Under the pieces are notes generated by a model, which made no database searches, had not been told where the DNA came from, and was given only the letters and a program-made list of their open reading frames with translations. Positions 1-33,679 of a DNA stretch of 64,000 bases are shown in pieces. The position numbers were made by a program, and so were the translations under genes. Origin of the DNA: Mobula hypostoma (lineage: Eukaryota); NCBI RefSeq assembly GCF_963921235.1, contig NC_086097.1, positions 170,626,001-170,690,000 on the forward strand, in the 5' to 3' direction. The number at the start of each line of letters is the position of its first letter. Within the stretch, counting starts at the first letter, position 1.

Positions 1-330
1 CCTAACCTCTAATCCCCCTGACCCATCAATAACCTGTCAATCTCAGCCATAAATACACCAATTGACAGCTTCCATAGCCCTGTGTGGCAACAGATTTCAC
101 AGATTCCCCAGCCTCTGGTTGAAGGCATTCCTGCTTGTCTCAGTTTAAAAGGAATGCCCCTTTATTCTGAGGTGGTGCCCTCAGATCCTGGACTCTCCTG
201 CTAATGGAAATATCCTCTATCGAGATCTTTCAGAATCCAGTCGGCTTGAATGAGATACCCCTCGTTCTTCTGAACTCCATCAGGTAAAGGCTCTGCACCA
301 TCAAACACCCTTCATACGTTAAGCCTTTCA
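1..330 (-). mobile_element. CR1 LINE 3' fragment
   Basis: Reverse complement matches the CR1 ORF2 C-terminus/3' region seen many times in the window (SRIxGHHLRIKGHSFK...RNAFNQRLGNLx). Confidence 0.75.
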
Positions 331-926
331 TTCTTGGCAGCCTGGAAGGAGTTGTGAATGAGGGGAAAACAAAAATGGGATTTGTGTAGAACTAGCATAA
401 CAGGGGTGATTGATGGTCAGAATGGACTCAATAAACCAAAGGGATGGTTCCCCTGTTGTGTGATAATCTGGATCGAGACAATTGGCTGCAAGGTGGTGAA
501 CTGAGCTCTCTGCCTTGTTTACAGAGAATCGCAAGTTAGCTAAATCAAGGTGAATGCCATCAGGGGACGCTAACTTTTGTCGATCTTCTGATTCCAGCAA
601 TAATCAAAACCTGACATTGTCACCCAATCAAAATCAAAGTCAAAAATCACATTTACTGTCATACACACAAGTACACATTTGCATAGGTGCAAAGAAAATC
701 TTACATGCAAGAGCATCACTGGCACATAGTATCAGATGCTCAAATTTAAAAAATCGAAATCACAATTTAACAACTTAAATTGTACAAAATTGTAAAAGAA
801 AGAACATATTTAAAACAAAACAATAACAAAGCCCAAACATGAGGAAATCTGCTGGAAATTCAAGCAACACGCACAAAAATTGCTGGTGAATGCAACAGGC
901 CAGGCAGCATCTATAGGAACAGGTAT

Positions 927-962
927 AGTCGATGTTTCGGGCCGAGACCCTTTGTCAGGACT
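927..962 (-). ncRNA. Hammerhead ribozyme motif (minimal type I), degenerate
   Basis: Reverse complement AGTC-CTGACAA-AGGG-TCTCGG-CCC-GAAACATC-GACT. The core changes are consistent with CpG decay. Confidence 0.6.
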
Positions 963-1269
963 AACTGAAAGAAGAGATAGTAAGAGATTTGAAAGTGGGA
1001 GGGGGAGGGGGAGATCTGAAATGATAGGAGAAGACAGGAGGGGGAGGGACGGAGCTAAGAGCTGGAAAGTTGATTGGCAAAAGGGATATGAGGCTGGAGA
1101 AGGGTGAGGATCATGGGATGGGAGGCCTAGGGAGAAAGAAAGGGGGGGTGAACCCAGAGGATGGGCAAGGAGTTATAGTGAGAGGGACAGAGGGAGAAAG
1201 AGAGGAAAAAGGGGAAAGAAAAAAGTAAGTAAATACATAAGGGATGGGGTATAAAGGGGAGGTGGGGCA

Positions 1270-1596
1270 TTAACAGAAGTTAGAGAAGTCAATGTTCATG
1301 CCATCAGGTTGGAGGCTACCCAGACGGAATAGAAGGTATTGTTCCTCCAGCCTGAGTGTGGCTTCATCTTTACAGTAGAGGAGGCCGTGGATAGACATAT
1401 CAGAATGGGAATGGGATGTGGAATTAAAATGTGTGGCCACTGGGAGGTTCTGCTTTCTCTGGTGGACAAAGCGTAGGTGTTCAGCGAAATGGTCTCCCAA
1501 CCTGCGTCGGGTCTCGCCAATATATAGAAGGCCGCATCGGGAGCACCGGACACAGTATATCACCCCAGCCAACTCACAGGTGAAGTGTCGCCTCAC
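1270..1596 (-). pseudogene. PLE GIY-YIG endonuclease domain (ORF C-terminus)
   Basis: VIYCVRCSRCGLLYIGETRRRLGDHFAEHL...VATHF...LEEQYLLFRLGSLQPDGMN. Confidence 0.9.
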
Positions 1597-2108
1597 CTGG
1601 AAGGACTGTCTGGGGCTCTGAACGGTGGTGAGGGAGGAAGTGTAAGGGCATGTGTAGCACTTGTTCCGCTTACAGGGATAAGTGCTGGGAGGGAGATCGG
1701 TGGGAAGGGATGGGGGGACGAATGGACATGGGAGTCGCGTAGGGAGCGATCCCTGCGGAAAACAGAAAGGGGGGAAGGGAAAGATGTGCTTAGTGGTGGG
1801 ATCCCTTTGGAGGTGGCAGAAGTTACGGAGAATTATATGTTGGACCCGGAGGCATAGGTGAGGACAAGGGGAACCCTATTCCTAGTGGGATGGCAGGAGT
1901 ATGGGGTGAGAGCAGACATGTGTGAAATGGGAGAGATGTGTTTGAGAGCAGAATTGATGGTGGAGGAAGGGAAGCCCCTTTCTTTAAAAAAGGAGGACAT
2001 CTCCTTCGTCCTGGAATGAAAAGCCTCATCCTGAGAGCAGATGTGGCAGAGACAGAGGAATTGCGAGAAGGGGATGGCATTTTTGCAAGAGACAGGGTGG
2101 GAAGAGTA

Positions 2109-2494
2109 TTAGTCTAAGTAGCTGTGAGAGTTCATTGGCTTATAGTAGACATCAGTAGATAAGCTGTCTCCAGAGATAGGGACAGAAAGATCAATAAAGG
2201 GGAGGGAGATGTCAGAAATGTACCAGGTAAACTTAAGGGCAGGGTGAAAGTTGAAGGCAAAGTTAATGAAGTCAGTGAGCTCAGCATGCGTGCAGGAAGC
2301 AGCGCCAATGCAGTCATTGATGTAGCGAAGGAAAAGTGGGGGACAGATACCAGTATAGGCATGGAACATGGATTGTTCCACAAAGCCAACAAAAAGGCAG
2401 GCATAGCTGGGACCCATATGGGGGCCCATGGCTACACTAGTTTGGATGAAATGGGAGGAGCCAAAGGAGAAACTATTAAGATTAAGAGTAAGGG
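2109..2494 (-). pseudogene. PLE reverse transcriptase fragment (degenerate)
   Basis: VAMGPHMGPSYACLFVG, LRYINDC (YIDD decayed), FHPALKFT, LPFIDL, TDVYYKP are PLE RT motifs. Confidence 0.9.
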
Positions 2495-2627
2495 AGCCTT
2501 GTATCCCTTTTGCCAATCAACTTTCCAGCTCTTAGCTCCATCCCTCCCCCTCCTGTTTTCTCCTATCATTTCGGATCTCCCCCTTCCCCTCCCACTTTCA
2601 AATCTCTTACTATCTCTTCTTTCAGTT

Positions 2628-2663
2628 AGTCCTGATGAAGGGTTTCAGCCCGAAACGTCAACT
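2628..2663 (+). ncRNA. Hammerhead ribozyme motif (minimal type I), intact catalytic core
   Basis: AGTC-CTGATGA-AGGG-TTTCAG-CCC-GAAACGTC-AACT: CUGAUGA and GAAA boxes, stem II GGG/CCC, palindromic ACGU stem III, GUC cleavage triplet. One stem I mismatch. Confidence 0.75.
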
Positions 2664-3891
2664 GTACTTCTTATAGATGCTGCCTGGCCTGCTGCGTTCC
2701 ACCAGCATTTTGTGTGTGTGTTGCAATAACAAAGCCCATTGAAGTGCAAAGAGGTCAAAGTGGTCAGGTTTTTGCTCTACTGAGATAGTGATTAGTATTG
2801 TGCCAGCTGGTTCAAGAAGCAAATGGTTGAAGGGAAAAGTTGTTCTTGAACTTGGACCTATGGGACTTCAGGCTTCTCAACCTCCTGCTGATGGTAGCGG
2901 CAAGAAGGTGGTGGGGATCTTTGATAGTGATAGATGTTATCTTCTGGAGATAACACCTAATGTAAACACCAGCAATGCTGAGAGGTGTTGTGGGCCGGGT
3001 CCATGACACTTCCAGTGAGAATAGTCCCTGACATGGTTCAGAGGTGGAAAATGAGAAAACTCAGTAATCCAATCCCAGACCCACAGGGATTGTATAGCAC
3101 AGAAACAGACTCTTTGGCCCATTAAGTCCTCCTCAGCTATCAGTCGCATATTTATATTTATATTCTTATTTCCCTTTCATCACTCAGTTCTCGAAACAAC
3201 TTACACAATGCAAATCCATGACCACTTTGATTAGTTTGAATGGCAATAGCCTTTATTTTTTTTTCTAGTTGTGTCCTTTCTGATATAATTTTTAGTAAAT
3301 TGTAAATTAGTTTATTATTGTTACATGAACTGAGGTACAGTGAAATTTTTATCTTGTATACCGTTCAAACTGATAATTTTGTTACAACAGTGCACTGAGG
3401 TAGTGCAAAGGAAAACAGCAGGAGTGCAGGTTATAAACATGAGAGTCTGTAGATGCTGGAAGTCTGAAGCAACATACACAAAATACTGGAGGAACTGGTG
3501 TAGGTTGAAGTGTGTTACATTAACACACTTCAAAGTGCAGTGAGGTTTTTCTTGTGAACGTTGTGAATCTGTTGCCATCTGCCTGTGATGTGGTTGCAAG
3601 TTTTTCATTGTACTTCTGCATACAAGCAATATGATTTGAGCAAATGACAATAAATCTGACATTAACCTCATTTATTTTATTCTTCTCAGGTTCCTGTCAA
3701 CTTCTAGTACAGTAGCTTTACAATGGTTATCCTTCCAACCAGTCACAGGCAGAACATATAGACAGCACCCGAGGTCAGGATTGAACACAAATCTGTAATG
3801 ATGTGAGGCTATGGCTCTACCAATTGTACCACCTCCTTCCCCTCTTGTTAAAGAAGAATGCTTCCGTACTTAAGAACTATGAATCCAAGCA

Positions 3892-4739
3892 CGGACAAGA
3901 GAAAATCTGCAGATGCTGGAAAACCGGGCAATGCACACAAGATGCTGGAGGAACTCAGCAGCCCAGGCAGCATCTATGGAAAGGAATACAGTTGACCTTG
4001 CAGGCTGAGACCCTTCACCAGGACTGGAGAAAAAAAGGAAGGTAAGGGGAGGAGCACCAGAGGGAGGTAATGGGTGGGTAAGGAGATAAGGTTAGAGAGG
4101 GAAAAGGGAATGGGGAATGGCGATGGGGCGGGGGGCAGGTGTCATTACTAAAAGTTTGAGAAATCAATGTTCATGCCATCAGGTTGGAGGTTACTCAGAT
4201 GGAATACAAGGTGTTGCTCCTCCAATATGAGTGTGGCTTTCCCATTCTGACATGCCAGTCTATGGCGTCCTTTACTATTGCGATGAGGCCATACTCAGGT
4301 TGGAGGAACAGCACCTTGTATTCCAACCTGATGGCATGAGCATCGATTTCTCAAACTTCTGGTAATGCCCCCTCCACCTCCTTTACCATTCCCCATTCCC
4401 ATTTCCCCCTTTCACTTTATCTCCTGACCTGCCCATCACCTCTCTTTGGTGTTCCTCCTGCTTTTCCTTCTTCCATGTCCTTCTTCCTCTCCTATAAGAT
4501 TCCCCCTTCTCCAGCCCCATATCTCTTTCACCAATCAACTTTCCAGCTCTTTATTTCATCTCTCTCCTGCTCCCAGTTTTACCTGTAACCTTGTGTTTCT
4601 TCCTCCCCTCCCCCACCTTCTAGTTCTGACTTCATCTTTTTTTCTCCAGTCCTGGTGAAGGGTCTTGACCCAAAACACTGACTGTACTCTCTTTTCCATA
4701 GATGCTGCCTGACCTGCTGAGTTCCTTCAGCATTTTGTG
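3892..4739. mobile_element. PLE inverted pair of 3' ends (minus arm 3892-4239, plus arm 4240-4739)
   Basis: Both arms carry the GIY-YIG C-terminal coding end, the 3' UTR and a degenerate hammerhead. TSD TGAATCCAAGCA at 3880-3891 and 4740-4751. Confidence 0.85.
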
Positions 4740-5477
4740 TGAATCCAAGCATGCTCGTTGTTAGAAGGTAAAGATATTTTGTCTGCTGCTGCAGACAATG
4801 GGTTACAGGCAGAATTACTGGCAGGCTGTAAGTGAATCTCGTTGGTGCTTATGAGGTCTTGAACACACAGATGTAGAAGACATCTATGGGGAACAATGCA
4901 ATCCTTTTATATGTAAATATTCCAGCACCTGAAAGCAATTCTGAATTGACAAACAGAGCAAAGGGAACAATATGTGGCAGTTATTCCCCTTAGACAGAAT
5001 TGATAGCTGGTGCATTGTATGATTTTAAAGTTCTAACAATGTGATAATCATTCAATTCTAATACTTTGTTTTGAAAATAGTTGGTTAATTTTCACACGCT
5101 TGGATCCTGAACTATTCACGTAATTTTAAATTCAGTTCAACACCTGCCCCTGCACCTTCTCCATAACAGCCAGCGCAAGCCCTAAACAGCCCTTCCATTC
5201 CAGGTGGGATGGTTTTACATATGCAAATCCTGCACTGTTATTTATTGTATTTCGTGCTTCCATTGTGGCCTCCTCTGTATTGGTGAGAAGCAATGCAGAT
5301 TAGGGGACCGCTTTGTTGAGCACCTTTGCTCCGTCCACCGCAGCAGCCAGGGTCTCCCAGTGGCCAGCTATTTCAATTCCACTTCCCATTCCCTCACCAA
5401 TATATCTGCCCATGGCCTCCTCTACTCTCATGTTGAGACTGTTTGGAAATTAGAGGAACAGAACCTCGTAGATAGAT

Positions 5478-5570
5478 ACAACACACATCAAAGTTGCTGG
5501 TGAATGCAGCAGGCCAGGCAGCATCTCTAGGAAGAGGCGCAGTCGACGTTTCAGGCTGAGACCCTTCGTC
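5478..5570 (-). mobile_element. Very short PLE 3' end insertion
   Basis: Close match to 864-960. Reverse complement includes GACGA-AGGG-TCTCAG-CCT-GAAACGTCGACT. Confidence 0.75.
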
Positions 5571-5677
5571 GGATACTTTATTGAATGCAAAGGAAATTAC
5601 AGTGTCACTGTAGCATTACCAGTTCACATATACAATATTAGAAGAAAAGTGAAAAGAGTAAGTGAAAAAAAATTGCC

Positions 5678-5987
5678 TTGATTAATCAAGACTTTCAAAC
5701 ATTGTGGGGACCTTTTCTGAATTATTTTCTAAACCTTTGATTTGCTGTTAAAGCACAGATGATGACTAACTATCTTTTTTTCTTTTTTTTACTAATCAGC
5801 TTCGGTCTTGGTAGTTGGTTAGATTTTTTTTATATTAATAAAATAATTTTTCAATGTCACCAACTAATTGACTTGTACGAATGTAAGGTAAGGAGTTTTT
5901 ATATGCGATTTAGTTTAATGTATTGACATATATTTTTCCGTGTAATCTGTATTCTTATATATATAAATTAATGAAAATTTTGGAAAG
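5678..5987 (+). mobile_element. L1-clade LINE 3' end
   Basis: Begins QDFQTLWGPFLNYF (resembles fish L1 ORF2 C-terminus), followed by an AT-rich UTR and A-rich tail. TSD AAAAAAATTGCC at 5666-5677 and 5988-5999. Confidence 0.6.
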
Positions 5988-6739
5988 AAAAAAATTGCCC
6001 TCAGCACAGCATTGAGTAGTTTCCAACCTAATGGCATGAACACTGAATTCTCCAAATTCTTGCAACGGCTGTCTCTATGTCCCTTTTCACTGAACCGCTG
6101 AACCACCATCTCTTTCCTGGTCCCCACTCTCTGCATCTCCACATAATCCACACACTCCTCCCACTGGATCACCTCTCCTCCTCCCTCCCTTTATTCGATG
6201 ATCCACTTTACTCTCCAATCCGATTCTACCACCTTCAGCCCTTTGTCACCTCCACCTATCGTCTCCCAATATCTGATGCCATTCCCACCCACCCTCCCTC
6301 CCTTATCTGCCCATCAACCCTCACCTGGTTTCACCTAATACCTGCTGACTCTTGTTCCACTCCTTGCCCCCACCACTATATACTGGATATCTCCCCTCTT
6401 TCTTTCAGTCCAGATGATGGGTCATGACCCAAAATATTGACTGCACATTTCTCTACATAGATGCTGCCTGACCAAATGAGCTCCTCCAGTGCTTTTATGT
6501 GTTGCATGTAAATTTATCATCAGATCTGATTTATCTTACACTTGGTTAGATGTTATTTGGTAATTGTGTATGTATCAGATGTATGTATTGGTCTACATTC
6601 TGTCTCTTGAAGTTTCTATTGTGGTTAAGGAAAGACCTTCTTTTAGAAGTAGAATTTTGTATTTGTTTCAATGGGTTGAAGATAGATTGATAACTATTTT
6701 TGGGGGTAATTAGATCATTAGTGTGGCACGGACCATCAT

Positions 6740-12112: not shown

Positions 12113-13120
12113 GTCTGTGACCTAGATGTAAATATACAAAGGGGAAATAAATTGCAGAAAAACCATGACCATAAACTTGATTCTAACCCGATCATTCTGC
12201 AAATCTAACCTTGCCAGTTACATTGTGAAAAGCAACCGAGTGTTCTTCATTCTGTGATGTTGAAGTGCCTCAAAATAATCTTTCTGTAGGCATGGAATTG
12301 TTATCATCTTCTGCAAAGGTGCTGCAGAATCCAGTAGGGAGTTTTGAATTCAAACTTCTGCCTCTCCACAATTCAACATCAATTTTCAATATCAAGGGAG
12401 GCTTTCTCGAAGTTGCAAGTGTCCATTCAATCCCTACACATCCCAGCACCCAGCTGAGAAACACTCCTCTTCCACCACTCTGATCCTGCTCATCAATTAT
12501 TCCCATGCAGCGCAGAAGTTGGTGGCTCTGTCATGTTCAACTGCAAATAACTGTGAGACTTATGGAACTCTGCGCAGGTGATCAATGACAGAGCAGCCAG
12601 CCATAAATCTAAAACAAGAGCTGAAGCAATCAAAGGGAATTGATTCTCACCAGTTACATGTCTTCACAGATGCTCTTCCAACAGTCAGCTGTCATGAAGC
12701 GCAAGCGCAGATTATCAAACCTAGAAACATTGACTATGGAGTAGGAATGGATGGTTGGCAACTGTCCTTGAGTTAGACTCAAATTGGCATAGTGTTGACA
12801 ATGTTGTACAGTACCTTGAAACTAAATACTTCAAAAACTGAACACAAGGGATTCTGCAGAGCAACACAAACAAAATGCTGGAGGAAATCAACAGGTCAGG
12901 CAGCATCCATGGAAATGAATAAACAGTCAATGTTTCGGGCTACGACCTTTTAACAAGACTGGAAAGGAAGGAGGAAGATGCCAGAGTAAAAAGGTGGGTG
13001 GAGTGTAAGCTAGGAGTGATAGATGAAGCTAGGTGGGTGAAAAAGGGAAAGGACTGGAAAAGAGGGAATCTGATCCACAGACACAGGCAGAAAGTGCCAC
13101 AAATATTCAGCAGGGCAGTT

Positions 13121-14056
13121 AACACAAAATCTGCAGATGCTAGGGTCAAAGCAACACTCACAACACGCTGGAGGAATTCAGCAGGTTGGGCAGCATCCGT
13201 GGAAAAGTTCAGTCGATGTTTTAGGCCAGAACTCTTCGTCAGGACTGTAGAGGGAAGGGGCAGAGGCCCTATAAAGAAGGTGGGGGGAGGGTGGGAAGGA
13301 GAAGGCTGGTAGGTTCCAGGTGAAAAACCAGTAAGGGGAAAGATAAAGGGGTGGGGGAAGGAAGGCAGAGAGGTGATAGGCAGAGCTTTGTCGAGCACCT
13401 CCGCTCCGTCCGCCACAACATCTATTGCATCCAGTGCTCCCAGTGCGGCCTCCTCTACATCGGTGAAACCCGACGCAGATTGGTGGACTGCTTCGCCGAG
13501 CACCTTTGCTCCGTCCGCCAAAACAGACAAGATCTCCCAGTAGCCGCCCACTTCCACTCTGCTTCCCACTCCCATTCAGATATGTCCATACATGGCCTCC
13601 TCTACAGCCATAATGAGGCTAAACTCAGGTTGGAGGAGCAACACCTCATATACCGTCTAGATAGTCTCCAGCCCCTTGATATGAACATAGAATTCTCCAA
13701 CTTCTGGTAATTCCCTCCCTCCCTCTATCCCTATTTCACTCTGCCCCCTCCCCCCCAGCTGCCTATCACCGCCCTCATAGTTCCGCCTCCTTCTACTACC
13801 CATTGTGTTTTCCCCTATTCTTTCTTCACCTTTCCTGCCTATCACCTCTCTGCCTCCCTTCCCCCACCCCTTTATCTTTCCCCTCACCTGGAACCTATCA
13901 GCCTTCTCCTTCCCACCCTCCCCCCACCTTCTTTATAGGGCCTCTGCCCCTTCCCCCTACAGTCCTGACAAAGGGTTCCGACCCAAAACGTCGACCGATC
14001 TTTTCCACGGATGCTGCCTGACCTGCTGAGTTCCTCCAGTGTGTGGTAAGTGTTGC
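13121..14056. mobile_element. PLE inverted pair (minus arm 13121-13384, plus arm with GIY-YIG 13385-14056)
   Basis: ORF 13351-13710 IYCIQCSQCGLLYIGETRRRL...LEEQHLIYRL. Hammerhead-like motifs at 13211-13247(-) and 13961-13996(+). Imperfect 15-bp TSD TTCAGCAGG(G/T)CAG(T/G)T at 13106-13120 and 14057-14071. Confidence 0.88.
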
Positions 14057-16564: not shown

Positions 16565-17310
16565 CATAAGACCATAAGATATAGGAACAAAATTAGGCCA
16601 CTTGGCCCATTGTCTTCTCCGCCATTTCATCATGGCTGATCCAATGTTCCTCTCAGTCCCAGTCCCCTGCCTTTTCTTTGTATCATTTCATGCTCTATCA
16701 ACCTCTGCAAGAATCTTTCATCCTTTGCCTTACATATACATAAAGACTTGGCCTCCACAGCTGCCCGTGACAACAAATTCCACAAATTCACCACTCTCTG
16801 GCTAAAGAAGTTCCTCCTCATCTCCGATTTAAAAGGATGCCACTCTATTCTGAGGCTGTGTCCTCTGGTCTTAGACTCTTCCACCATAGGAAACATCCTT
16901 TCCACATCCACTCTATCAGGCCTTTCACCATACAATAGGTTTCAATTAGGTCACCCTTCATTCTTCTGAATTCCAGTAAATACATGCCCAGAGCCATCAA
17001 ACAGTTTTCATATGACAAGCTGTTTAATCCTGGAATCATTTTCGTGAACCACCTTTGAACCCTCTCCAATTTCAGAAAATTTTTCCTAAGATAAGGGGCC
17101 CAAAATCGGTCACAGTATCCAAGTGAGGCCTCATTAGTGCCTTATAAAGTATCAACATTATATCCTTCCTTTTATATTTTAATCCTCTTGAAATGAATTT
17201 TAACATTGCATTTACCTTCCTCACCACCAACTCAACCTGCACAGGGACTCCCAAATCCCTTTAGGCCTCAGATTTTTATATTTTCTCTCCATTTAGAAAT
17301 TGGTCGACCC
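16565..17310 (-). mobile_element. CR1 LINE 3' fragment
   Basis: Minus-strand ORFs LYKALMRPHL, ERVQRWFTKMIPGL, RGHSLRI...RRNFFSQRVVNLWN. Confidence 0.85.
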
Positions 17311-18074
17311 TTCCACTTATGAATGCGTTTTGAAATACGAGTAAAAAAAAGGTTTATTCATTTACTCTTTTTTATCTGCATAGGCTTTGCAATAGGAAAA
17401 TTTTATTCCATATCCCGGATTTTTGAGTAATGGTTTATCACCATTAAGCCTCCCAGCCTCTCCTGCATGGATTCTGTCTACATTTCTCACTGCTTCAGTA
17501 AATCAGGCAGCATAATCAAAGACCCTTCACACCCCAGACATCCTCTCCTCTCCTGCCCTCCCATCGAGAAGAATATGAAAAAAGCTGAAGCATGTACCAA
17601 TAGATTCAAGGACAGATTCTATACTGTTGTTAGAAGACCATGGAATGGTCCATATTGCTATAAAATAGACTCTTGACCTCTATTTTGTGACAATAATAAA
17701 CCAAATTATCAATTCTAGCATCCATGTACACCAACCCGACACTAAACACATTTTATTCTGCAAACATTTCCATCAACTTCCCTGGAATCCTCCAATTACC
17801 CTCATACTAAAGACCATAAGGCCACAAGACATAGTAGCAGAATTAGCCATTTGGCCCATCGAGTCCGCTCCGCCATTCAATCATGGGTGATTTTTTTTTA
17901 TATATATAAGACTAAACTAAAGACAGTGTTCAATGGCTAATTAACACCTTTGTGATGTGGAAGGAAACCAGAAGTGCAGACAGAGGGTGGGATTGAACCT
18001 GAGTTACAGGAGTCGTGAGGGAACAGCTCCACCAGCTGTACCACTCTGCCACCCAGTTCAAACTTGTGCCCCGA

Positions 18075-18500
18075 CAAATCAGAATCAGAAGCTGGTTTAT
18101 TATCAGTGAGTACTTGATGCAAAATTTGTTGTTTTTGTGCCAACAACACAGTGCAAGACATCAAAAATACACGTTACAATAAAAAAACATATCGTGCAAA
18201 AGTCAAGTAGAGTGGAGAAGTAGAAAAGAGGAATAGTGTTCATGGACCATTCAGAAATCTGATGGCAGAAGACAAGAAGCTGTTCCTGAAATGTTGAATG
18301 TGAACCTTCAGGCTCTTGTACCTCTTCCCCAATGGTATTAATGAGAAGAGGGCAAGTCCCGTGTGGTGAGGGCCCTTAATGACGGATGCTGCCATCTTGA
18401 GGCACCGGCTTTTGAAGATGTCTTCAGTGGTGTTGAGGGTTGTAGCCATGATGGGGATGGCTGAACCTGCAGCCCTCTGCAGCTTCTTGCAATCTGTATG
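18075..18500 (-). mobile_element. Rex1/Babar LINE 3' fragment
   Basis: RCLKMAASVIKGPHHTGLALFSLIPLGKRYKSLK...FRNSFLSSAIRFLN. Confidence 0.8.
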
Positions 18501-19159
18501 TGGAGCAAAACTCGCAATATTTCTTGACCCCTTACACTACCTGACTCCAGTGCCACCTCTGGTAACGATGATACTGTTAGCTTCACCACCAGTTATCTCT
18601 TTAAAGGCTAACATTAATGCTTCATTCCCCTCGTTGGTTGACATATTTTAGTTGACAGGACTTGAGCTGTGAGTTTCGTTTGCTACATAAAGAACAACTG
18701 CACCCGATAAACTCTTCGCAATTGTGCAGGAATTCAATTTATTTCAGGATTAGCAGACTCTCTGTGGCATGCTATCTTTCACAGCATACACAAATATATT
18801 GAGCAGGGTGCCTATTATAACACAGTCCTTTAATGTCCTTTCATTTTTTGGGAGTCATGCAAAATGTATATCATTTTCAAAGCATACCAAAGCTCTTTAT
18901 CATCAGAAGGTAATTTGCAGCTAGTACAGCAGTCAAAACCGTAATCTCAGTGCAAAGAGAATTCATCAAAGGTTCAGCTCCCCCACATGCTTCTTCTTCA
19001 GATGGGATGATCAGAGAACACACTATGATGAATAGATAATTTGTGATGTGGATTCTACACAGGACTTGCACTGAATTATACCTAATACTTATCTCCAAAC
19101 AAGGCTATTCACACCAAAAGAGCCTATGCTAGGGTTTATAATTGAGGCTGTGTACTTTC

Positions 19160-20930
19160 ACCAGCTACAACCAGCCACATCTTCCCTACCCTCATCTCTT
19201 TCTGCTTTTCACAGGGACCATGCTCTCTGACTCATGCATTCCCACTCTTGCCTTCCTCTTTCCCAGGCACCGTTGGAAGTGCAACACCTGTCCCTGCACC
19301 TCCTCTCTCACTCCCCTCCAGGAACGTGAACAGCCCTTCCAGGAGAGGAGGATATTTACCTGCAACTTCTCTGATGTGGCTAGTTGAATCTGAACCTCCT
19401 GACATGGCTTCCTCTACACTGGTGAGATGAGATGGAGACTAGACGATCCTTTTGCCGAGCATCTGTCGTTTATGATCCCAGAGGGCCTGCTTCTAAGGTG
19501 GGGTAGGGTGTCCGGCAAGGCAGATGTATGGGGATATTGATTTTTTGCACAGATTGTGGTGGTGGAGGCAGATACAATGGATAAGCACATGAACTTGCAG
19601 GAACTGGAAGGATATGGATATTATATAGGCAGAAGGAATTAGTTTAGTTAAGTGTGCACAACACTGTGGGCTGAAGGGCCTGTTCCCATACTGTATTGCT
19701 CCATGGCCTTCTGAAGCACCTAGTTGCTAGCCAGGATAAGGCTAAAAGCAAACTTATGGTATAGCACCTGTTACGAGAATACACATAAAATTAAGATGTT
19801 TGCTGGCCTGGGCTAGCATCAGTGGCATCAGCAGTTGGTCTGCCACCTGCCCTCAGGGGAAGGAGAGATAAGGAACAATGGAGCAGCGTCTGGAGATGTG
19901 TAATGAAGGGATGTGGGAGGAAGAGCTGTCTGGAGCGGCTCCCCCCTTTGAACCCTGAACTGTTTGAAGTGATGGACAGGCGATACCCCAGCAGGGGGAT
20001 AAAAAGGGACAGGTTCGCTAAGACAGACACACACGCCACCCGAGGTAACGAGACCCTGGAAGCGGTACGCTTCTCACGAGTGGGTGAGAAGTGCCAGACA
20101 ACGACCAGGGTGGAAAGGTACGATCAGCGGGAACCCGGTGTGTGTCCGCCCTTGCCTGGGTGCCGGGTTCACTGCAGAGGATCGACCGCATCTGGAGGAG
20201 GGGTCACAGTCGGTGACCTCAGGTGACATCACTAAGGACCCGCCCAAATGCTGTTTGTGAGCCATCTCGCTGGTCTGTGAGTGAAGCCGTTCTGAATGAT
20301 CAGTTGTTCCTATTCTATGTCTCTCTTCCCCCACCTTGTCCATCGCCATGGCAACGATTACTGCGAACTGAACTACAAACTGGACTGAACTTTGAGTCAT
20401 TTTGAAATTGGTCATTTAACCCCTAGACAACGATAGAGCTTGATTGATGCTGTTATCTTAATTCTGTGCACATGTGTGGTTATCATTGTTGAATTGTTGC
20501 ATTTATTATCCTTTCGATTACTGTGTTGCTTGTTTCTTTAATAAAACTTTCTTAGTTCTAGTACTCCAGACTCCAACTGAGTGATCCATTTCTGCTGGTT
20601 TGGCAACCCAGTTACGGGGTACGTAACACACCTCAAATTCTGTCTGGGTAGTCGACAACCTGACAGCTCAAGCATTGAATTCCCCAAATGCAGGTGAACT
20701 GCTTCTCCTCAATCCCTTTTCTCTCTTCTTTTTAATCCTTTTATACCCACCTAGCCGCCACCACCCTGTTTCTTTCCCTTTTTCCACCCACCATGTCCCA
20801 CACATTCCCCTCTCTCAGTCCCTTCCCCAGTGTTTCAATTTGTCCATACCACCAGCTCCTTCATTTCGTACCATTCCTTTCAAATCAGATTCTAACATCT
20901 GCAGTCCTTTGTCTTCTCCACATTCCCTGC
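19160..20930 (+). mobile_element. Degenerate PLE remnant interrupted by a CR1 3' end (about 19500-19705) and a solo LTR
   Basis: CNTCPCTSSL...PFQERRIFTC at 19.3 kb. The xHL|KFCLGSxQPD..IEF C-terminal segment is split across the LTR. Confidence 0.65.
19769..20628 (+). mobile_element. Solo LTR (860 bp)
   Basis: Ends TGTTACG...CGTAACA (TG..CA, 7-bp inverted termini). 4-bp TSD CACC at 19765-19768 and 20629-20632. AATAAA near 20540. Many CpGs retained. Confidence 0.88.
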
Positions 20931-21112
20931 CCTGTGAAAAAGATCATGACCGTTCACCTTATCTGTGCCCCTTGTGATTCTATAAACTTCTATAAAGTCA
21001 ACACCCAGCCTCGTCCGCTCCAGGAAAAGCAGTCCCACACTATCCAGTGCTGCTTCTTATACTGTAGCTTTTTTTCCCTGTAGCTCTTCCTCTTGCTTGG
21101 AAAATATAACTA

Positions 21113-21950
21113 CAGTGCCTATAAAAGGTATTTACCCCCTTTGGCAGTTTTCATGTTTTATTGTTTTACAACATTGGATCACAGTGGATTCAATTTCGCT
21201 TTTTTGACACTGATCAACAGAAAAGACTCTTTCATGTCAAAGTGAAAACAAACTTCTAAAAATTGGTCTAAATTTATTACAATTATTAAGCACAAAATAA
21301 TTGTTTGCATATTTACTCACCCCTTCAAGTCAGTACTTAGTAGATGCACCTTTGGAAGCAATTACAGCCTTGAGTCTGTGTGGATAGCTTGCTATCAGTT
21401 TTGCACGTCTGGACGCTGCAATTTTTCCCCATTCTTGTTTACAAAACTGCTCAAGCTCTGTCAAATTGCACGGGAATTGAGAGTGAACAGATCTTTCAAG
21501 TCCAGCCAGAAATTCTCAATTGGATTGAAGTCTGGACTCTGACTTGTCCATTGGCTTTGTGGTGTAGCTTTGCCAGGATACTGACGCACCAGCAGTTGGA
21601 CCTTCCAGACACGGATGTAATTTTACTATAATCAATTGAAACACCTCGACTGCACATGGTGATCTCCATTTGACTAATTATGTGACTTCTAAAAACAGTT
21701 GGGGGCACCAGTGATGATTTGGTGTGTCTTATTGAAGGGAGAGAATATTTAGGCAATCAATTATTCTGTGTTTTATATTTGAAATTAATTTAGATCACTT
21801 TGTTGAGATCTGTTTTCACTTTCATATGGAAGTTTTTTTCTGCTGATCAGTGTCAAAAAAAGCCAATCAAATCCACTGTGATTCAATGTTGTAAACCAAT
21901 AAAAATGAAAAGTTCCAAAGGGGTGGGGTGAATACTTTTTATGGGCACTG
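21113..21950. mobile_element. Non-autonomous Tc1/mariner element with long TIRs
   Basis: TA|CAGTGCCTATAAAAGGTATTTACCCC ... GGGGTGAATACTTTTTATGGGCACTG|TA. Inverted similarity extends about 200 bp. No transposase ORF. Confidence 0.9.
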
Positions 21951-22719
21951 TATTAAGGTTTAAAATCAAAATGGTGCAGCTGCTGTGAATTCTGCAACAG
22001 AACTGGAAAATTTAAAAAATACTTAGCAGGCAGCTAACTTTGTCTCTAATACTGTCTGATCTGAGTATTTTTGTTCATGTAGACATTTGCAGTAACTTTA
22101 AATCAAGTCATTAAAGGGATAATGAATGAACAGTCTTATTAACAATTGCTGTTTCAGGTTCTAACCTGAGATTCCAATGGGTTCATCAAACTCCACCGTT
22201 ATTCCTACTCTTGAACATGTCAAGGAACACTTCATATAGGAATGTGAAAAATACAGAAGTATTTTCAATTGTCCTGCTCTGGTGTGCAGGATCATGGAAG
22301 AATTAATGTAATTAATTAAGAAAATTATTTAATCTTGAAGAATATCATAGCCTGAGTCATTTCAGATGTACATTGGGTGTAGATTCTCAATATTCCCTCA
22401 GTGGGAAGGAGTTTAGGCAACTTTGTAAGTAGGTGAAGTGATGATGTTAGGGAGATCACAATGTAAAGAGTCAAACATTTAGGTCAGAGAAGAACTATTG
22501 GAATTCTCTACCTAGGAGACCAGCAGTGACTGACTCACTGTGTATACTCAGGAAATATGCCATAGATTCATAGCTGCCTTTCTAAAGCAGCTAAGAAAAT
22601 CAAAATTATCTCTTCTTCCCCCTCCTATCAGGCAGATGATACAAAAGCCTAAAAACACATCACCATCAGCCTTAAGGACAGCTTCTGTCTCATTGTTACA
22701 ACTGTCTCATAGTACTATA

Positions 22720-23030
22720 GTGTTGGTGCGTGGCCAAGTGGTTAAGGCGTCGGTCTAGTGATCTGAAGATCGCTAGTTCGAGCCTCAGCTGAGGCAGCGT
22801 ATTGTGTCCTTGAGCAAGGCACTTAACCACACATTGCTCTGAGATGACACCGGTGCCGAGCTGTATCGGCCCTCATGTCCTTCCCTTAGACAACATCGGT
22901 GGCATGGAGAGGGGAGACTTGCAGCATGGGCAACTGCTGATCTTCCATACAACCTTGCCCAGGCCTGCACCCTAGAAACCTTCCAAGGCGCAAATCCATG
23001 GTCTTACGATACTTACAGATGCCTATATAT
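22720..23030 (+). mobile_element. tRNA-derived CORE-type SINE inserted in a Rex 3' UTR
   Basis: A box TGGCCAAGTGG, B box AGTTCGAGCC, CORE-like GTGTCCTTGAGCAAGGCACTTAACC. TSD ATAGTACTATA at 22709-22719 and 23031-23041. Confidence 0.85.
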
Positions 23031-23204
23031 ATAGTACTATAAGACGGAGTCTTGGCCTCATAATCTATCTCGTCATGGCCTTGTACCTAATTGTTGTCCC
23101 TACCTTATTATTCTGCATTCTGTCATTGACCTCAATGTATGTTTGTGATGAATTAATCTGCATGGATGGCATACAAAATAAAGTTTGTCACTGTACTTCG
23201 GAAA

Positions 23205-23930
23205 ATGACCATGAAGCCATACGATATAGGAGCAGAATTAGGCCAATTAGCCCATCAAGCCTGCTCTACTATTTCTCTCCATTTAGAAAATGCTTTTATT
23301 TCTGCTACCAAAGTGCATGGCCATACTCATCCCAACTCTGCCACTTCTTTGCCTATTCTCCTGATCGTCTAAGTCCTTCTGCAGCCTCCCTGCTTCCTCA
23401 ACACTACCTGCCCCTTCACCTATTTTAAGATTGTCTGCAAACTTGGCCATAAAGCCATTAATTCTGTCAGACATATAACATAAAAAGGAGCAGTTCCACA
23501 CAGACCCCTGAGGAACATCAGTAGTCACTGGTAGCTAATCAGAGAAGGCATCCTTTATTCCCAGTCTTACCCTCCTGCCAATCAGCCAATGCTCTACCCA
23601 AGCTAGTATTATTTCTGTAATATACAAAGGACTTTTAACTTGTTAAGCAGCCCTTGTCAAAGACCTTCTGAAAATCCAAGTAAACAACAACCACCAATAC
23701 TTCTTTGTCTATCCTACTTGCTACTTCTTTAAAGAATTCCAACAGATTTGTCAGGCAAGATTTTCCCTTAAGGAAGCCGTGCTGACTTCTGCCTATTTTA
23801 TCATAAGCCTCCAAGTACCCCAAAGCCACATCCTTAACAATGAACTCCAACATCTTCACAACCATTGAGGTCAGACTAACTGGCCTATAATTTCCTTCCT
23901 TCTGCCTCTCTAACTTCTTGAAGAATGCCG
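23205..23930 (-). mobile_element. CR1 LINE, internally deleted, with RT remnants
   Basis: SQHGFLKGKSCLTNLLEFF...YLDFQKVFDK and VPQGSV...KFADNLKIG. Confidence 0.85.
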
Positions 23931-23947
23931 TGACAATTATAAACCAA

Positions 23948-24374
23948 TTTAACGCCCTGGGAAACGTTTCACTGCTAACGTAATGGTCTTTCTGTAGAAG
24001 CGGTGTTTGGGTTATGGTCAGAGTTAACGGGTGCTTTGGAATGTGAGCTGGGTCTTTTGTTCAGCGGGAGATGAAGAGGGAAGACCCTGGAGAGAACCAG
24101 TCATAGGATATGACTCGATGGGGAGATCGTGATTCGATGGAGCCAGGTGGCGAGATCGACTGAGGATCGGTGAATTGAGCTCCAGCTGGTGTACATTTGA
24201 CTGTTTAATTATAATGGGCTTTTTTCATTTTTCCTTTCTTTTCTTTACTAACCCTTTATTTAAGATTTATAACCGGGGTTTGGAGTGGGAGAGCCGTCTC
24301 AATCTCATGGGTTTGGCGGTACTGAAATGTGTCTTCCCTAGACTTATGCAGCCAAGGAAACCAGTAGGGTTTCA
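23948..24374 (+). mobile_element. Probable degenerate solo LTR
   Basis: CpG-containing block starting TTTAACGCCC (TG possibly mutated) and ending GGTTTCA, flanked by CCAA at 23944-23947 and 24375-24378. Confidence 0.45.
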
Positions 24375-24849
24375 CCAATTTCCCATTGTTCAGAGAATTT
24401 GGGAAATGGTGTTGAGGTAGAAGATCAGGCATGATCTTCCTTCTTCATATAGACATTGTTGATATTGAACATGGTGGTTTAAAATATGGAAGAAAATGTA
24501 GAACTAGAATGGGCCAAGGACTGTGGAAGCAGACAGATCAATTGTCTTTATGTGGAGTGATTTGAGCTGGTTACTGAAGAGAACTACTAATCGTCACTTG
24601 CTGGGAAGAGGGCAATAAATGGATGCTGGCCTGGAGCAGACCCAATGAAAAGCCAGTGACCTATAGCCAATGACACTGGAAAGCAATATTTGAATTTAAA
24701 AATATTTCAAATATTTTGAATATTTTGAATTTTAAAAACTGTGTTTAAAAAGACTCTTCCCATATATAAGTGAATGAAATAGCAAGGAGATCTAATTATC
24801 AAACATATCATCTACCATACAAAACTATAACTTGAGTGTTCCTCATTAG

Positions 24850-25975
24850 AAGAACTAAATGCACCTAATATTCTGAAAGAGGTAGCTGAGGAGATTGTGG
24901 AGGCATTAGTAATGATTTTGCAAGAATCATTAGATTCTGGTCTGGTTCTCAAGGTTCGGAAAATTACAAATATCACTCCACTCTTCAGTGGTTGGGACCA
25001 CTTTTTCTTACGGTGTCTGTCAATGATTTGGATGACAGTATTGATGGCTTTGTGGCCAATTTTGTAGATGATACAAAGATAGGAGGAAGAACAGGTAGTG
25101 TTGAGGAAGCAGGAATGCTACAGAAGGACTGAGATAGATTAGGAGAATGGGCAAAAAAGTGGCAGATGGAATACAGTGTCAGGAAGTGTATGGTCCTGAA
25201 CTTTGGTGGAAGGGATAAAAGTGTAGACTGTTCTCAAAACAGAAAGAAAAGTTTCAAAATCTGAGGTGCAAAGGGACTTGGGAGTCCTTGTGTAGGATTC
25301 CCTAAGGATTAAATTGCAGGTTGAGTCAGTGGTGAGGAAGGCAAATGCAATGCTGGCACTTATTTCAAGAGGACTAGAATATAAAATCCAGGATGTAATA
25401 CTGAGGCTTTACAAGGAACTGGTGAGGCCTCACTTTGGTGTATTGTGAGCAATTTTGGACCCCTTATCTAAGAAAGGACATGCTGACATTGGAGAGCGTT
25501 CAAAGGAAGTTCACAAGAATGATTCTGGGAATGAAAGGCTTATCATATGAGGAGCATTTGATGGCTCTGGAGCTGTACTCGCTGGAATTTCAGGCAATTG
25601 AAGGAGGATCTCATTGAAACCTATCGAATATTGAAAGGCCTAGATAGAATGGATGTTTCATATAGTGGGGGTGTCTAGGACTAGGGGGCACAACTTTAGA
25701 ATAGAGGGACTTCCATTTAAAATGGAGATGAGGAGGAATTTCTTTAGTCAGAGGGTGATGAAACTGTGGAATTCATTGTCATAGTCAGCCGTGAGAGCCA
25801 GGTCATTGGGTATTATTAAGGCAGAGGTTAATAGATTCTTGATAAATTGGGGTGTAAAAGGTTAGGATAAGGCAGGAGAATGGGATTGAGAGGGAAATGG
25901 ACCAGTCATAATCAAATGGTGGAGCAAACTTGATGGGCCAAATGGCCTAATTCTGCTCCTATGCCTTATGCTTTT
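24850..25975 (+). mobile_element. CR1 LINE, internally deleted
   Basis: FVDDTKIGG and YCEQFWTPYLRKDMLTLESVQRKFTRMI, ending in the CR1 3' UTR (GGCCTAATTCTGCTCCTAT). Confidence 0.85.
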
Positions 25976-27529
25976 ATATAATAGTGGGGCATCCAGTCTA
26001 CATGTGAAAACTCAGTTCCGGGAATCAAGAATCAAAGATTTTAGTTGTTACCTCTGGAATGGTGACTGGTTGGGAGACAACTGATAGAAATTTATAAAAT
26101 TATGAAAGGCATACCCATAGTTGATAGTCAGAATCTTTATCCCAGAGTATAATTGTCAAATACTAAAGGGTATGTATTTCAAAAGAAAGGTGAAAAGTTT
26201 TAAGGAGATGTGTGAGGTATTTTTTTAAGCAGAGTTATGGGTGCCTGGAATGGGCTAGCAGGGGTGGTGGTGGAAGAAGTTCTAAGAGTGGCCCTTACAA
26301 CGCTGTTAGGTGAATACACAGGGAATGGATAGATATAGATCATGAAGAGGGATATGATTTAATCATGTCTAATTTAACAATGTCTGTGCTTGGCACAAAT
26401 ATTGTTCCTGTGCTGTATTCTTCTCTAATCTATGCCCTATGTTTGGAACCTAATTTTGAAAGCAAAGTACGTTACAGAGCCTCTCTTATAAAGCCAGTTT
26501 AACATTACTCACTAGGAATAAATTTCTATGTAATTCTCTATACACCATCTATTCATGTTTCCTTCAGCCAGATGGTTCAAATTTTATTTGAATTACATTC
26601 AGGTATCTAGGTTCAAATCCTACACGAGAACTTCAAACTCAAAAATAAAATTCGGCCACCACCCCCAGTGCAAGAGGTGATTTTTTTTCTGACATGTGCT
26701 AAGCTGAAGCTTCATTTGCGCCTTCAGATGGCATGCATTCTATTTGTCTTTGTTTTTGCCAAAATGTTTTTAAAGCAAGTGGTCTCAACGTGAGCTCCCA
26801 CACTTGAATTATGGGACATAGGGTTGAAAAATCAAAGTAGCAGCTCCAGCCCAATCATATCTCCCGCAGCAAGATACCAGCATGTTGTGGAGAGATGTGA
26901 AGAGAGAAAAAAAATCTGTGAGGGAAATCTTGCGTGAAACAAAAATGCAGCAAGCACTCTATCTGTTGAGTAAACAATTCAACATTGCAGTAAAATAAGA
27001 ATGTACAAGGTTACAAGGTGAGAAACATCTGTGAAGGCATTTGGATTGGTATTTCAAATCAAATCAGAGAGGTATATTCAGAGAAAGCTGCATGTACAAA
27101 TCTAAAGAACACTTTCCCTTTGGAATAGGGATTGTTCATGTTACGCTGACACAGCAATACCAAGTATTTTCAGTCTTGACCCCAGTGAGGTCAGCTTTGA
27201 TTAGTCTAGACACCACCATGCACAAATCCAAAATAGCTCTGCTTTTCTGCTCTGATCTGAGGAGCTAATTTAAATTCAGTGTGAGAGACTGGAATTCCCA
27301 CAGAGTGCAGAGGAGATTGATTTCTCAAAGCAGGCAGCAATGGGTACACTCTCACCGATTCGATCAAACCCCATTCTCTCCACCACCCCATCCCCCTAAG
27401 AAACTGCAATGGTTTCCCTTTGGCTCATGTTGACCTCACTTACCAGCTTTTTTAATCCATTTAAATTCTATAAATTTGTTTCCGCCTCTGACTCTCTGCA
27501 TTTTCCTTTAATACCTCCTTAATGCTGAC

Positions 27530-29585
27530 TTAGAGTTATTGAGTTGTACGTCACGGAAATGCGTCGAATGGCTCAGCTCATCCATGTGATGAATTTATAT
27601 ATTTGAACTAGTCCCATATACATGCCTTTTCACTGCATAATTTTATAAGCTGCTATCAGGTCTCCCCTCAGCCTGTATTGCTCCAGAGAAAATAACTGAA
27701 GTTTTTCTATCCTCCCTTGATAGGTCATTCCCTCTAATCCAGGCAGCATCCTAGTAAGTTTCATCTGTACCTTTTCCAAATCCTCCACACGTTCCTGTAA
27801 AGGAGCATTCAGAACTTCATCCAATAGTCAAAGCACAGACTAATCACATTGTTATAGCTCTTCTTCAAAGGGGAAGGATGACCATGTCCCCAAACCTAAC
27901 CACATTTTCCTGCCTGAGTATAGATTCCACTCCACTGCCAACCATTGATCTCCCCTTGGCCCCTCATTTTACGTGGTCACAGAGAGTTACACAGCTCAGA
28001 GACAGGCCTTTTAACCTAACCTATCCATGCTGACCAAGTTGTCCACCTGAGCTAGTCCCAGTTGCCCGCATTTGGCCTATAAACCTTTACTGTCCATGTA
28101 GTTGTCCAAATATCTTTAAGCATTGTAATTGTACCCACCTCTACCAATTCCCTTGGCAGCTCATCTCACATGCCACCACATTCTTCGCCAAAAGCCTGCC
28201 CCTCAGTTTTTTAAAAATCTTTTCCCACTCATTTTTATCTCATGCCCTTCAGTATTAGACTATCACCATTTTATATATGCCCCCCAGAATTTTATTATAG
28301 CATCCTATTCTCCAGTGGGAATAATTCTAGTCTATCCAATCTTTCCTTATAATTACAATCCTCTATTCCAGGCTACATCCCTGTGAATCACCTCTGTACC
28401 ATGTCCTGTGCTGCTACGTCCTTTCTATAGTGTTGGTGACTTGAAATGTATGCGATATTCGAAGTGTGCCTTAGCCAATCTCTTGTATGACAGCCCCACA
28501 ATGTCCCAACTCTTATACTCAATACCACTGCCTCTGATGGTGTGCAAGCCAACACTTTTTCATTACCCAATCCACCTTCAGCTCTATTTTCATGGAGCAA
28601 TGAACTTGCATCACATTAATGCTTCTGTGCACTTTGTCTTTTGCTATACATATCCAGCCAGTGTTATACAAGATAGAATGCATTATCTTTCAATTGTCTT
28701 GATTACATTCCATTTGCCACTGCACCGTGCAACTTTCCGGCTGATCTATGTCATTCTCTATCTTTATCCTAAAGTAACTGTCCTCACTATCTACAACTCC
28801 ACCAATCTTTGTGTGACCAGCAAAAGCTTCCTCAGACTTCTCATCCAAATCATTTATGCAACATATGGCATATAACAAAGGTTCCTACCCAGCACTAGTC
28901 ACTATGGTACACCACTGGTTACAGAAAAAAATAATCATAATATGAACAAGCTTGATATAGTGCACAGAAAATTTATGAGGATGTTGCCAAGACTTGAGGA
29001 CCTGAGTTATAGGGAAAAATTGAATAGCTTAGGTTAGGACTTTATTCCATGGAATGCAGGGGAAAGAGGAAGATCTTATAGAGGTATAAAAAATTGTGAG
29101 GGGTATAGGCAAGTTGAATATTTGAAGGTTTTTTTCCTTCAAAGTTAGGTGAGATGGGAACTAGAGGATTAAGGTGAAAGGTGCAGTATTTAAGGGGAAT
29201 CCGAAAGGGAGTTTCTTCACTCAGATGGTGGTACAAATGTGGAACAAGCTGCCAGCAGGAGTGGTAGATGCAAGCTCCATTGTAGCATTTAAGAGAAGTT
29301 TGGATAGATACATGAATAGGAGAACTATTTAGAGCTGTTATCCAGGTGCAGGTAGACGGGAGTAAGTAGAAAATTAGGCTGGCATAGACTAGATGAGCTG
29401 AAGAGCTTGTTTCTGTGCTTTATGACTCTAACCACTACCCTCTGTCTCCTATCACCAAGCCAATTACATAATACCTTTCCTCTGACACCTATCCCTCTAA
29501 AACTGAACATCTTAAACTTTATGAGTCCTAACTTTCTGGACCAGCCTACTGTGCAGGATCTGATCCAAGTATACCATGTTTCTTA
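27530..29585. mobile_element. Cluster of old CR1 fragments in both orientations
   Basis: LEKVQMKLTRMLPGLE...RLRGDLI(-) and FAGHTKIGGVVDSE(-), with a plus-strand CR1 3' end at about 28940-29430. Confidence 0.7.
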
Positions 29586-29690
29586 CTTTGCCTTCATCAA
29601 TTTATCTGTCTACACCCCTTGCTGCCTTGGAAAAGTAACTAGCATAATCAAAGTCCCTACCCGCCATGGACCTCCCTTCCACTGGGCATA

Positions 29691-31935: not shown

Positions 31936-33679
31936 TCATAAGATACAAAAGCCTGAATACATGTACCGCCAGGCTCAAGGACAGATTCAGCTCCACTGTT
32001 ATCAAATAAATCAATGGTTCCACCTTGTTTGATAAAATAGAGTCTTCACCTCACGGTCTACCTCATCATGGCCTTGTACTTTATTGTCCGTCTGCACTGC
32101 ATTCTCTCCTTAACTGCAAGATTTTATTCTGTATTCTGTTATTGTTTACCTTTGTACCACCTCAATGCACTGATGCAATGAAATGCAAAACAAACGATTT
32201 CACTGTATCTTGGTACATGTGTCAATAATTTTTTTAAATAAACTGATTTCTCCAAAAAACTCAGTCAGATTTATAATGCTCATTTAATATTTACATATAA
32301 TGTATTTTTTTGTCTTTGAATGTGAACTTTATCAACTATTGCTTGGATCCTGTAGAAGTTTTTAGGAAAGGTTTGGCAGGCTTAATGTCTTTAGAATTCA
32401 ATAGCTATGAATTAGCTTGGAGGTGCCATGTTGGTAAGGCTATTAAAATTGTTGACAGTTTAACATCTGCAGCTGGCTATATCAATACTTCATTTAATTG
32501 ATGTTCTTTACTATGCTTTTAAGATTTAAGAGCATTGATAGTGCTACTGTGGGAAGCAATCTGAAGTCTGATATTGATTATTAACCTAGTTGTGAACTGG
32601 TAATTAAATCCTTTCTCTTGATCAAGTTCCAGCAAAACAAATATACCTTTTAATCGTGTTAAATCTGGACTGCCTAATCAAATACTGTTTAATATGTTAA
32701 ATTCCCCTTCACATTATGAAAACTCAGTTCATTGTGCATATTCCCTCCTTATCGTTCTCTCCCAGGTGGGACACCTTACAACAACTAAAAACTATTCTCT
32801 CTTAATCTGACTTCCCACTTTCTCAATCTTTCTTTCATCACACTTTCTCCTTTCTTTCTCTCTCACTTTGTTCCCTCTGCCTTGCTCTTTTCTCACTTTC
32901 ATTCTCGTTCTCAGTCTTTCACTCTTTCCTTTTCTCCTCACTCTCTTTTCCTTCTCATTCCAATGTTGTTATTCTTGCTCCCACTCACATATTCCATGTT
33001 TCTGACCTCCCTTTTTGCTCTTAGATCACTCCCTCCTCCTTTTACACTCCCTCACTCATCTTTTCTTCAGCCTTTTGTACCTGCTGCACTATTCAATGAG
33101 ATCATTGCTGATTTTTTATTTATCTCAGCACCACGTTCCTGCATTAAGTCTGTATCTCTTGATTCTTTTAATATCTAGGATCAAAGCAGTAGATTTTAAG
33201 TTTCATAAAGTGAGTAAAGTCAGGCTGAATCTGAGCTCTGTCAACCAGTTCTATTGTGAGAATAACTATGTCTTCTGAGTCACTAGAAATACCACAGACC
33301 TGGTTGTGACAACAGAATAAAAGCAGTTTGCAATAACATCAAACAGCCTTTTATCAATCATACCAACAGACTTCTCAGAACAAGCTTCAATTCTAAAATA
33401 GAAAGGAATGGTAGCTTGCCTTTTTCAGAAGTTGGAATCACAGTGCACTGTAGGAGATTACTCTGCCCATCAGACTGTTCTGGCTCTTTGTAGGTGTTTT
33501 CTGATTTGTTCCACTGCCTCCCTTTCTCCTTATCTTCTGAGATCCAATCCCCAAGAAATCACGGTTCCCCTTCAGTTGCTTTGCAAAGCAGGGAGTGGAG
33601 GCTGGAAATTGATTTATTATTGTTGCACGTACTGAGATAGATCAAAAAGGTTTTATTCTGTGGGTTCTTCAGATGTTTT

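Follow-up and report, generated by a model that had tools for sequence, protein, structure and literature searches.

The motif at 2628–2663 is contained in a 1.9-kb insertion (836–2723) of the analysed window, the whole 64-kb stretch of DNA from the ray Mobula hypostoma. The insertion has its ORF on the minus strand, is flanked by a 15-bp target-site duplication (TSD), and represents a dead, 5′-truncated Penelope-like element (PLE), the parts of which are listed in Table 1. Its two arms (2495–2724 and 864–1095) are inverted relative to each other, with 210 of 233 columns identical (90%). The motif lies in the inverted 5′ partial pLTR, antisense to the ORF. A previous description, made from the letters of the window (the sequence-only reading), had placed it in a Penelope-like 3′ tail; the origin in a PLE pLTR stands, but the 3′ tail is where the motif comes from rather than where it now sits. 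The tail of PLEs is described in PMC8557442, PMC3846280 and PMC11167929, and the combination of inverted pLTR, one-sided tail and TSD is a standard PLE layout (PMC3846280, PMC8557442). It is repeated by two more insertions of the same family, both with inverted arms and a one-sided tail, at 3892–4739 (TSD of 12 bp, 3880–3891/4740–4751) and 13115–14056 (9 bp, 13106–13114/14057–14065), giving three PLEs with inverted arms in the first 14 kb of the window. All four hammerheads in these two insertions show core changes.

Table 1. Features of the PLE insertion and of the hammerhead motif (window positions).
Feature	Position	Strand	Remarks
Target-site duplication, left copy, 15 bp	821–835		
Tail extension, ∼28 nt, at one end only	836–863	−	
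Part of true 3′ pLTR matching the inverted arm	864–1095	−	carries sense-strand hammerhead 931–958
Broken, 5′-truncated PLE ORF	1270–2492	−	RT C-terminal part, linker, GIY-YIG; stop 1270–1272
Inverted partial pLTR, tail-less, at truncated 5′ end	about 2495–2723	+	carries motif 2628–2663
Target-site duplication, right copy, 15 bp	2724–2738		
Helix I	2627–2630 with 2661–2664	+	four pairs can form, one U·G
Core box C3–A9, CUGAUGA	2632–2638	+	intact
Extra A between positions 9 and 10.1	2639	+	
Helix II	2640–2643 with 2648–2651	+	GGG(U)/(G)CCC: 3 bp Watson-Crick (all G-C), 4 bp counting U·G; loop 4 nt; G10.1–C11.1 = G2640–C2651
G12–A15.1, GAAA	2652–2655	+	
Palindromic ACGU, helix III without loop III	2655–2658	+	C15.2, G16.2 = 2656–2657
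GUC triplet	2657–2659	+	U16.1 = 2658, C17 = 2659; predicted cut after C2659

The coding region of the element starts within the C-terminal part of the PLE RT at ∼2492 (−), which was found by tblastn, and is damaged by a stop at 2109–2111 and by a frame change between 1674 and 1851. A CX4CX2C linker (in P0001), which falls within the CX2-5CxxC definition, precedes the GIY-YIG endonuclease. The Pfam match of the latter (E 0.00075, 20.2 bits) is slightly below the cut-off of 22.6 bits, and CxxC and two His are seen. This is the arrangement of EN+ PLEs, with an RT followed by a C-terminal GIY-YIG endonuclease carrying a CCHH motif. The RT motif that bears the Asp-Asp pair reads YIND, compared with YIDD in the relatives P0003, P0006 and P0007. 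The protein search gave eight relatives, 67–82% identical, every one of them a gene model from one of two rays. The CX2-5CxxC linker marks the Neptune/Nematis type and is absent from Penelope/Poseidon (PMC8557442); this motif, together with the report of Neptune as the clade that carries it in vertebrates, would type the element as Neptune. Diverged, older PLE endonuclease fragments, 31–53% identical to P0001, occur at 5198–5494, 19259–19474 and 41467–41745 (all +). PLE coding sequence of the element is also contained in the ray gene models P0005, P0008, P0009 and P0010, which are named as host genes (kinase-domain protein, mucin-2, chitinase-domain protein and NLR), and such occurrences are either annotation run-ins or exonisation.

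The letters at 2628–2663 (+) are identical to those given in the sequence-only reading, and the core boxes, helix II, ACGU palindrome and GUC named there are all present, including 12 of 12 hammerhead core nucleotides. Of the traits of minimal PLE hammerheads, the motif shows the core CUGANGA...GAAA...UH, the extra nucleotide, G10.1–C11.1, a helix II of at least 3 bp, the palindromic 15.2–16.2 without loop III, and a position in a PLE pLTR. Missing is a helix I that closes directly on the core, as the core-closing pair 2.1–1.1 is a C2631·A2660 mismatch; in the sister arm, position 1.1 is G. The motif had been called an intact minimal hammerhead; it is indeed minimal and complete in its core, but not intact, since this mismatch had passed unnoticed. 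Judged by these features, it is a genuine copy of the PLE minimal type I hammerhead motif, whose helix III is palindromic and lacks a loop, as in hammerheads that cleave as dimers (PMC4209133), in agreement with the earlier assignment.

A descriptor scan of both strands of the window returned 2628–2663 as the sole match to core, helix II and palindromic helix III. In 300 dinucleotide shuffles of the window, core, helix II and palindrome were matched 0.21 times per shuffle, falling to 0.017 if three of the four helix I pairs were also demanded, so that the hammerhead motif by itself is only moderately above chance. Rfam 15 gave zero matches at the gathering threshold over the whole window and none at E≤10 over 700–6000, and is therefore no test for this class of minimal motif. 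Of the model searches proposed as a check, the descriptor scan thus recovers the motif and the Rfam models do not. Both the shuffle rate and the silence of Rfam could be taken to mean that the motif is a chance look-alike, but its identity as a hammerhead is settled by its place in a PLE terminal repeat, not by the motif alone. It belongs to the pLTR, 3′ of the GIY-YIG stop, where PLE hammerheads lie, and the same core stands beside PLE coding sequence in other organisms (see below). Position and helix I covariation across families together refute a chance origin, which is scarcely credible.

Comparison of the arms, and of family copies elsewhere in the window, points to decay. Of the 19 substitutions between the arms, 17 are transitions and 7 are in CpG context, 2660 among them, and the C·A mismatch at 2.1–1.1 is probably the product of CpG decay. 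The sense-strand hammerhead at 931–958 (−) is broken, with G8 changed to A and the palindrome lost. A covariance model made from 13 window copies gave 33 matches in the 64 kb (counted at E≤1, the weakest being fragments or chance), and all 12 core nucleotides are kept in only one of these, at 2628–2663. Among the 13 copies, departures from the majority were found in 20 of 129 cells at 11 core positions (0.155) and in 75 of 505 cells of the downstream flank (0.149), which means that the core is no better kept than the flank; at G positions of CpG type the figure is 18 of 47 (0.38). By these counts the family copies in the window appear to decay neutrally, and the full core at 2628–2663 would therefore be the luck of one copy among many, and not selection. 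The 2.1–1.1 position is paired in 7 of the 11 informative copies of window alignment A1, and so the mismatch reflects decay of this particular copy rather than a family trait. In the window alignment the first two helix I pairs of the ray family are C-G and U-A. Covariation in A1, which holds the 13 best window copies, is not above that of shuffles (371 of 500 were as high); in a 33-row alignment fitted to the structure only 2 of 500 shuffles were as high, a result biased by the fitting itself.

Related motifs were sought in metagenome contigs. A long degenerate pattern of the ray family had no metagenome matches, and one in which nothing but the core and helix II was fixed matched at least 121 loci, from other organisms. 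Among the matches listed there are 123 motifs with full flanks, 70 of them distinct; helix I lies outside the pattern, and helix II is fixed by it. The first helix I pair (2.1–1.1) is formed in 65 of the 70 distinct motifs (A-U 56, U-A 7, G-U 2) and the second in 63 (G-C 32, C-G 27, other 4), while the fifth and sixth positions are paired in 14. Because these motifs form a few related groups, they are not 70 independent cases, and it is between families, within these few groups, that helix I covaries. The pair lost at 2628–2663 is the best-kept helix I pair among the motifs listed. PLE protein matches occur at 25 of the 121 loci listed, and relative to the PLE coding sequence the motif lies downstream on the same strand in 22 of 26 cases and upstream on the opposite strand in 4. 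One metagenome contig (L002/L003) has a PLE whose ORF is 47–57% identical to P0005 of rays. Both hammerheads of this PLE are complete, one in sense orientation 3′ of the ORF and the other on the opposite strand, in an inverted arm at the 5′ end, and it is a better-preserved example of the layout seen at 836–2723. In a viral contig, L001, two reading frames are separated by a type I hammerhead of canonical form at 295–350 (+), with a complete helix III. Folding reproduces this structure (z −2.0), yet the motif is without an Rfam match at the gathering threshold; it shares only the core with the ray element.

The pairing of helix I and the PLE context of the metagenome motifs indicate that the hammerhead register proposed in the sequence-only reading is correct, and the family motif is likely to be a real self-cleaving ribozyme. 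Alternatively, it might serve the pLTR as a signal, structural or for protein binding, that resembles a hammerhead and does not cleave itself in practice. Cervera and De la Pena left open 'functions other than self-cleavage' (PMC4209133), hammerhead mutants of the Anolis element were without effect on insertion in vitro (PMC11167929), and the A1 copies do not covary above shuffles. However, C3 and G8 mutants of the Anolis hammerhead abolish cleavage and the double mutant partly restores it (PMC11167929), dimers of the Schistosoma minimal hammerhead do cleave (PMC4209133), and the covariation of helix I between families, among the metagenome matches listed, arose outside the search pattern. Such a non-cleaving role, structural or protein-binding, is held to be highly improbable. 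The check on family conservation and covariation that had been suggested thus has a divided outcome: within the window the core is kept no better than the flank, A1 gives no signal and the fitted 33-row alignment gives some, while across families helix I covaries among motifs of a few related groups.

For the copy at 2628–2663 itself, predicted folding is unfavourable. All folding figures are equilibrium predictions only. In the local minimum the core box pairs with CGUCA (2656–2660), at −12.2 kcal/mol against −6.3 for helices I and II, and the local probability of helix II, leaving out the arm duplex, is 0.03–0.42, varying with the length of flank. A plus-strand RNA spanning the element runs through the complementary arm before it reaches the motif. 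In such an RNA (830–2745), the predicted pairing with the opposite arm takes in 223 of 230 arm positions, including 34 of the motif's 36, and helix II has a probability below 1e-15. A plus-strand transcript across the element is therefore predicted to bury the motif in an arm-to-arm duplex of ∼230 bp; one beginning inside the element, after 1095, would escape this duplex. RNA of the minus strand carries only the antisense of the motif and the broken sense copy at 931–958. For dimerisation, no second full-core copy is found among the 33 model matches in the window, and pairing of ACGU in isolation yields just −1.7 kcal/mol. The unconstrained fold of two copies did not give a dimer hammerhead, a result without evidential weight given that the complete dimer lies beyond what the program can represent.

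It had been suggested that the copy or its family consensus may self-cleave. For the family, the metagenome helix I and PLE context make this probable; for the copy, the mismatch and the arm duplex make it unlikely. A working ribozyme at 2628–2663 would cut a plus-strand transcript by palindrome pairing with other copies of the family, whether in that RNA or in a different one, perhaps helped by PLE protein. The full core and palindrome are compatible with this, as are the abundance of the family (33 model matches in 64 kb) and the cleavage of the Anolis PLE hammerhead once the element's protein is added (PMC11167929). The C·A mismatch, though, lies beside the cut site, and a mismatch right 3′ of the cleavage triplet slows an engineered trans-acting hammerhead at least 500-fold, as cited second-hand in a review (PMC3138052). 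With the predicted arm duplex, the lack of another full core in the window, the weakness of the isolated ACGU duplex, the absence of a host exon among the 315 frames of the window described below, and Anolis RNA-seq showing no read ends at the cut site (PMC11167929), activity of this copy is rated as improbable.

The further proposal that a host transcript crossing the motif could be cut found no support. None of the 315 non-repeat frames of at least 45 aa in the window has a host protein domain above the Pfam cut-off (shorter exons would be missed), the motif is predicted to be buried, and there is no second full core, so that cutting of a host transcript at 2628–2663 is unlikely. The scan of these frames gave three weak matches, all below the cut-off (Mod_r, DDE_3 and PLAC). 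The PLAC frame was considered as a host exon and rejected, as the frame is not exon-like. Contigs from four sequencing runs, the RNA status of which is a guess, number 16,698–34,436 per run and lie almost all on repeat parts; the unique flanks of the locus are barely covered, which makes them uninformative on expression, strand and ends. Other repeats in the window include an inverted pair at 21111–21328 and 21732–21952 (80% over 223 bp), with the weak, sub-cut-off DDE_3 match between them at 21464–21622 (−), possibly a decayed DNA transposon of Tc1/mariner type. A long, diverged inverted pair at 57728–58198 and 58932–59365 (69% over 473 columns) has no match to the PLE, and RVT_1 fragments of another, LINE-like retroelement are found at 30467–31003 and 39749–40126 (both +).

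Minimal hammerheads of metazoan PLEs were described in 2014 by Cervera and De la Pena (PMC4209133), with the extra nucleotide between 9 and 10.1 and the G10.1–C11.1 pair among their traits. Intact ones failed to cleave as monomers and cleaved at a low level when joined into dimers or trimers (PMC4209133). The ray motif is like them in its type I topology, core, extra nucleotide, G10.1–C11.1, loop-less palindromic helix III, short helix I, U-rich 5′ flank and place in the pLTR, and unlike them in its unpaired 2.1–1.1. The legend to Fig. S4A of the same paper describes the layout of this insertion, with one hammerhead lying 3′ in a 5′-truncated PLE and another, of opposite strand, at its 5′ end. 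That work thus already contains the hammerhead class, its dimer model and the reversed 5′ copy; its Table S1 and Fig. S3 include no cartilaginous fish. Poseidon PAc of Anolis carolinensis (Frangieh et al. 2024, PMC11167929) shares the pLTR hammerhead, a tail (30–40 nt in PAc) and a GIY-YIG/RT ORF, but is an intact member of the Penelope/Poseidon clade, whereas 836–2723 has the Neptune/Nematis linker and is truncated and broken. The PAc hammerhead cleaves only with the element's protein, and is not required for insertion in vitro (PMC11167929). PLEs with inverted pLTRs (Arkhipova et al. 2013, PMC3846280; Craig et al. 2021, PMC8557442) likewise have an inverted, 5′-truncated copy at the 5′ end, a one-sided tail and a TSD; they differ in host lineage, and in rotifers have a TSD of 8–10 bp, compared with 15 bp here. 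Non-LTR retrozymes (PMC7229834; bioRxiv 10.64898/2026.07.22.740005) are animal repeats that also contain type I hammerheads, with a relationship to PLE pLTRs; nine dimers from Xenopus retrozymes included one that cleaved, and retrozymes are reported from one chondrichthyan genome (bioRxiv 10.64898/2026.07.22.740005). They are head-to-tail non-coding tandems, whereas the motif here is single and occupies the inverted arm of an element with coding sequence. Retrozyme identity was rejected, as the two copies of the element are inverted and there is one full core in 33 matches. No account of PLE hammerheads specific to rays or sharks was found in the literature searched (which did not extend to Repbase and most subscription papers), the 2026 preprint having sampled one chondrichthyan for retrozymes. 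What is added is a ray family of Neptune type within a known class.

The reading that very probably holds is that the motif is a passenger in a dead PLE copy, of a parental ribozyme class that is probably real, the copy itself having decayed and most likely cutting no RNA in the cell. The active parent would be a Neptune-type PLE of rays with a minimal type I hammerhead in each pLTR. Alone, such a hammerhead would be unable to close helix III; in a tandem transcript, copies on the same strand would base-pair through their ACGU palindromes, with slow cleavage after GUC that is probably aided by the element's protein, as is established in other PLEs. The insertion itself, as its arms, tail and TSD show, is a 5′-truncated copy with an inverted partial pLTR at the 5′ end. 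Neutral decay of both arms would have followed, in which the copy at 2628–2663 kept its core by chance and lost the pair adjoining the cut site. The window would offer it no competent partner on the same strand, and in a spanning transcript it would pair with the opposite arm. Most likely it is idle in the cell, although the retention of 12 of 12 core nucleotides and of the palindrome is a counterpoint. On a more speculative view, the ray PLE hammerheads, being abundant and often inverted, could act widely on host RNA: surviving cores of distant copies could dimerise in one long pre-mRNA and cut it, with inverted arms acting as an antisense lock that silences the ribozyme and yields long dsRNA, and 2628–2663 would be one such locked or latent cutter; this is considered very improbable. 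Under the passenger reading, the locus by itself is of little significance, and a copy both decayed and inverted is ill suited to testing what PLE hammerheads do in the cell, for which a young and intact tandem is to be preferred. Evidence that read-through RNAs are cleaved at sites of this kind would make it important, given the very large number of them in ray genomes.
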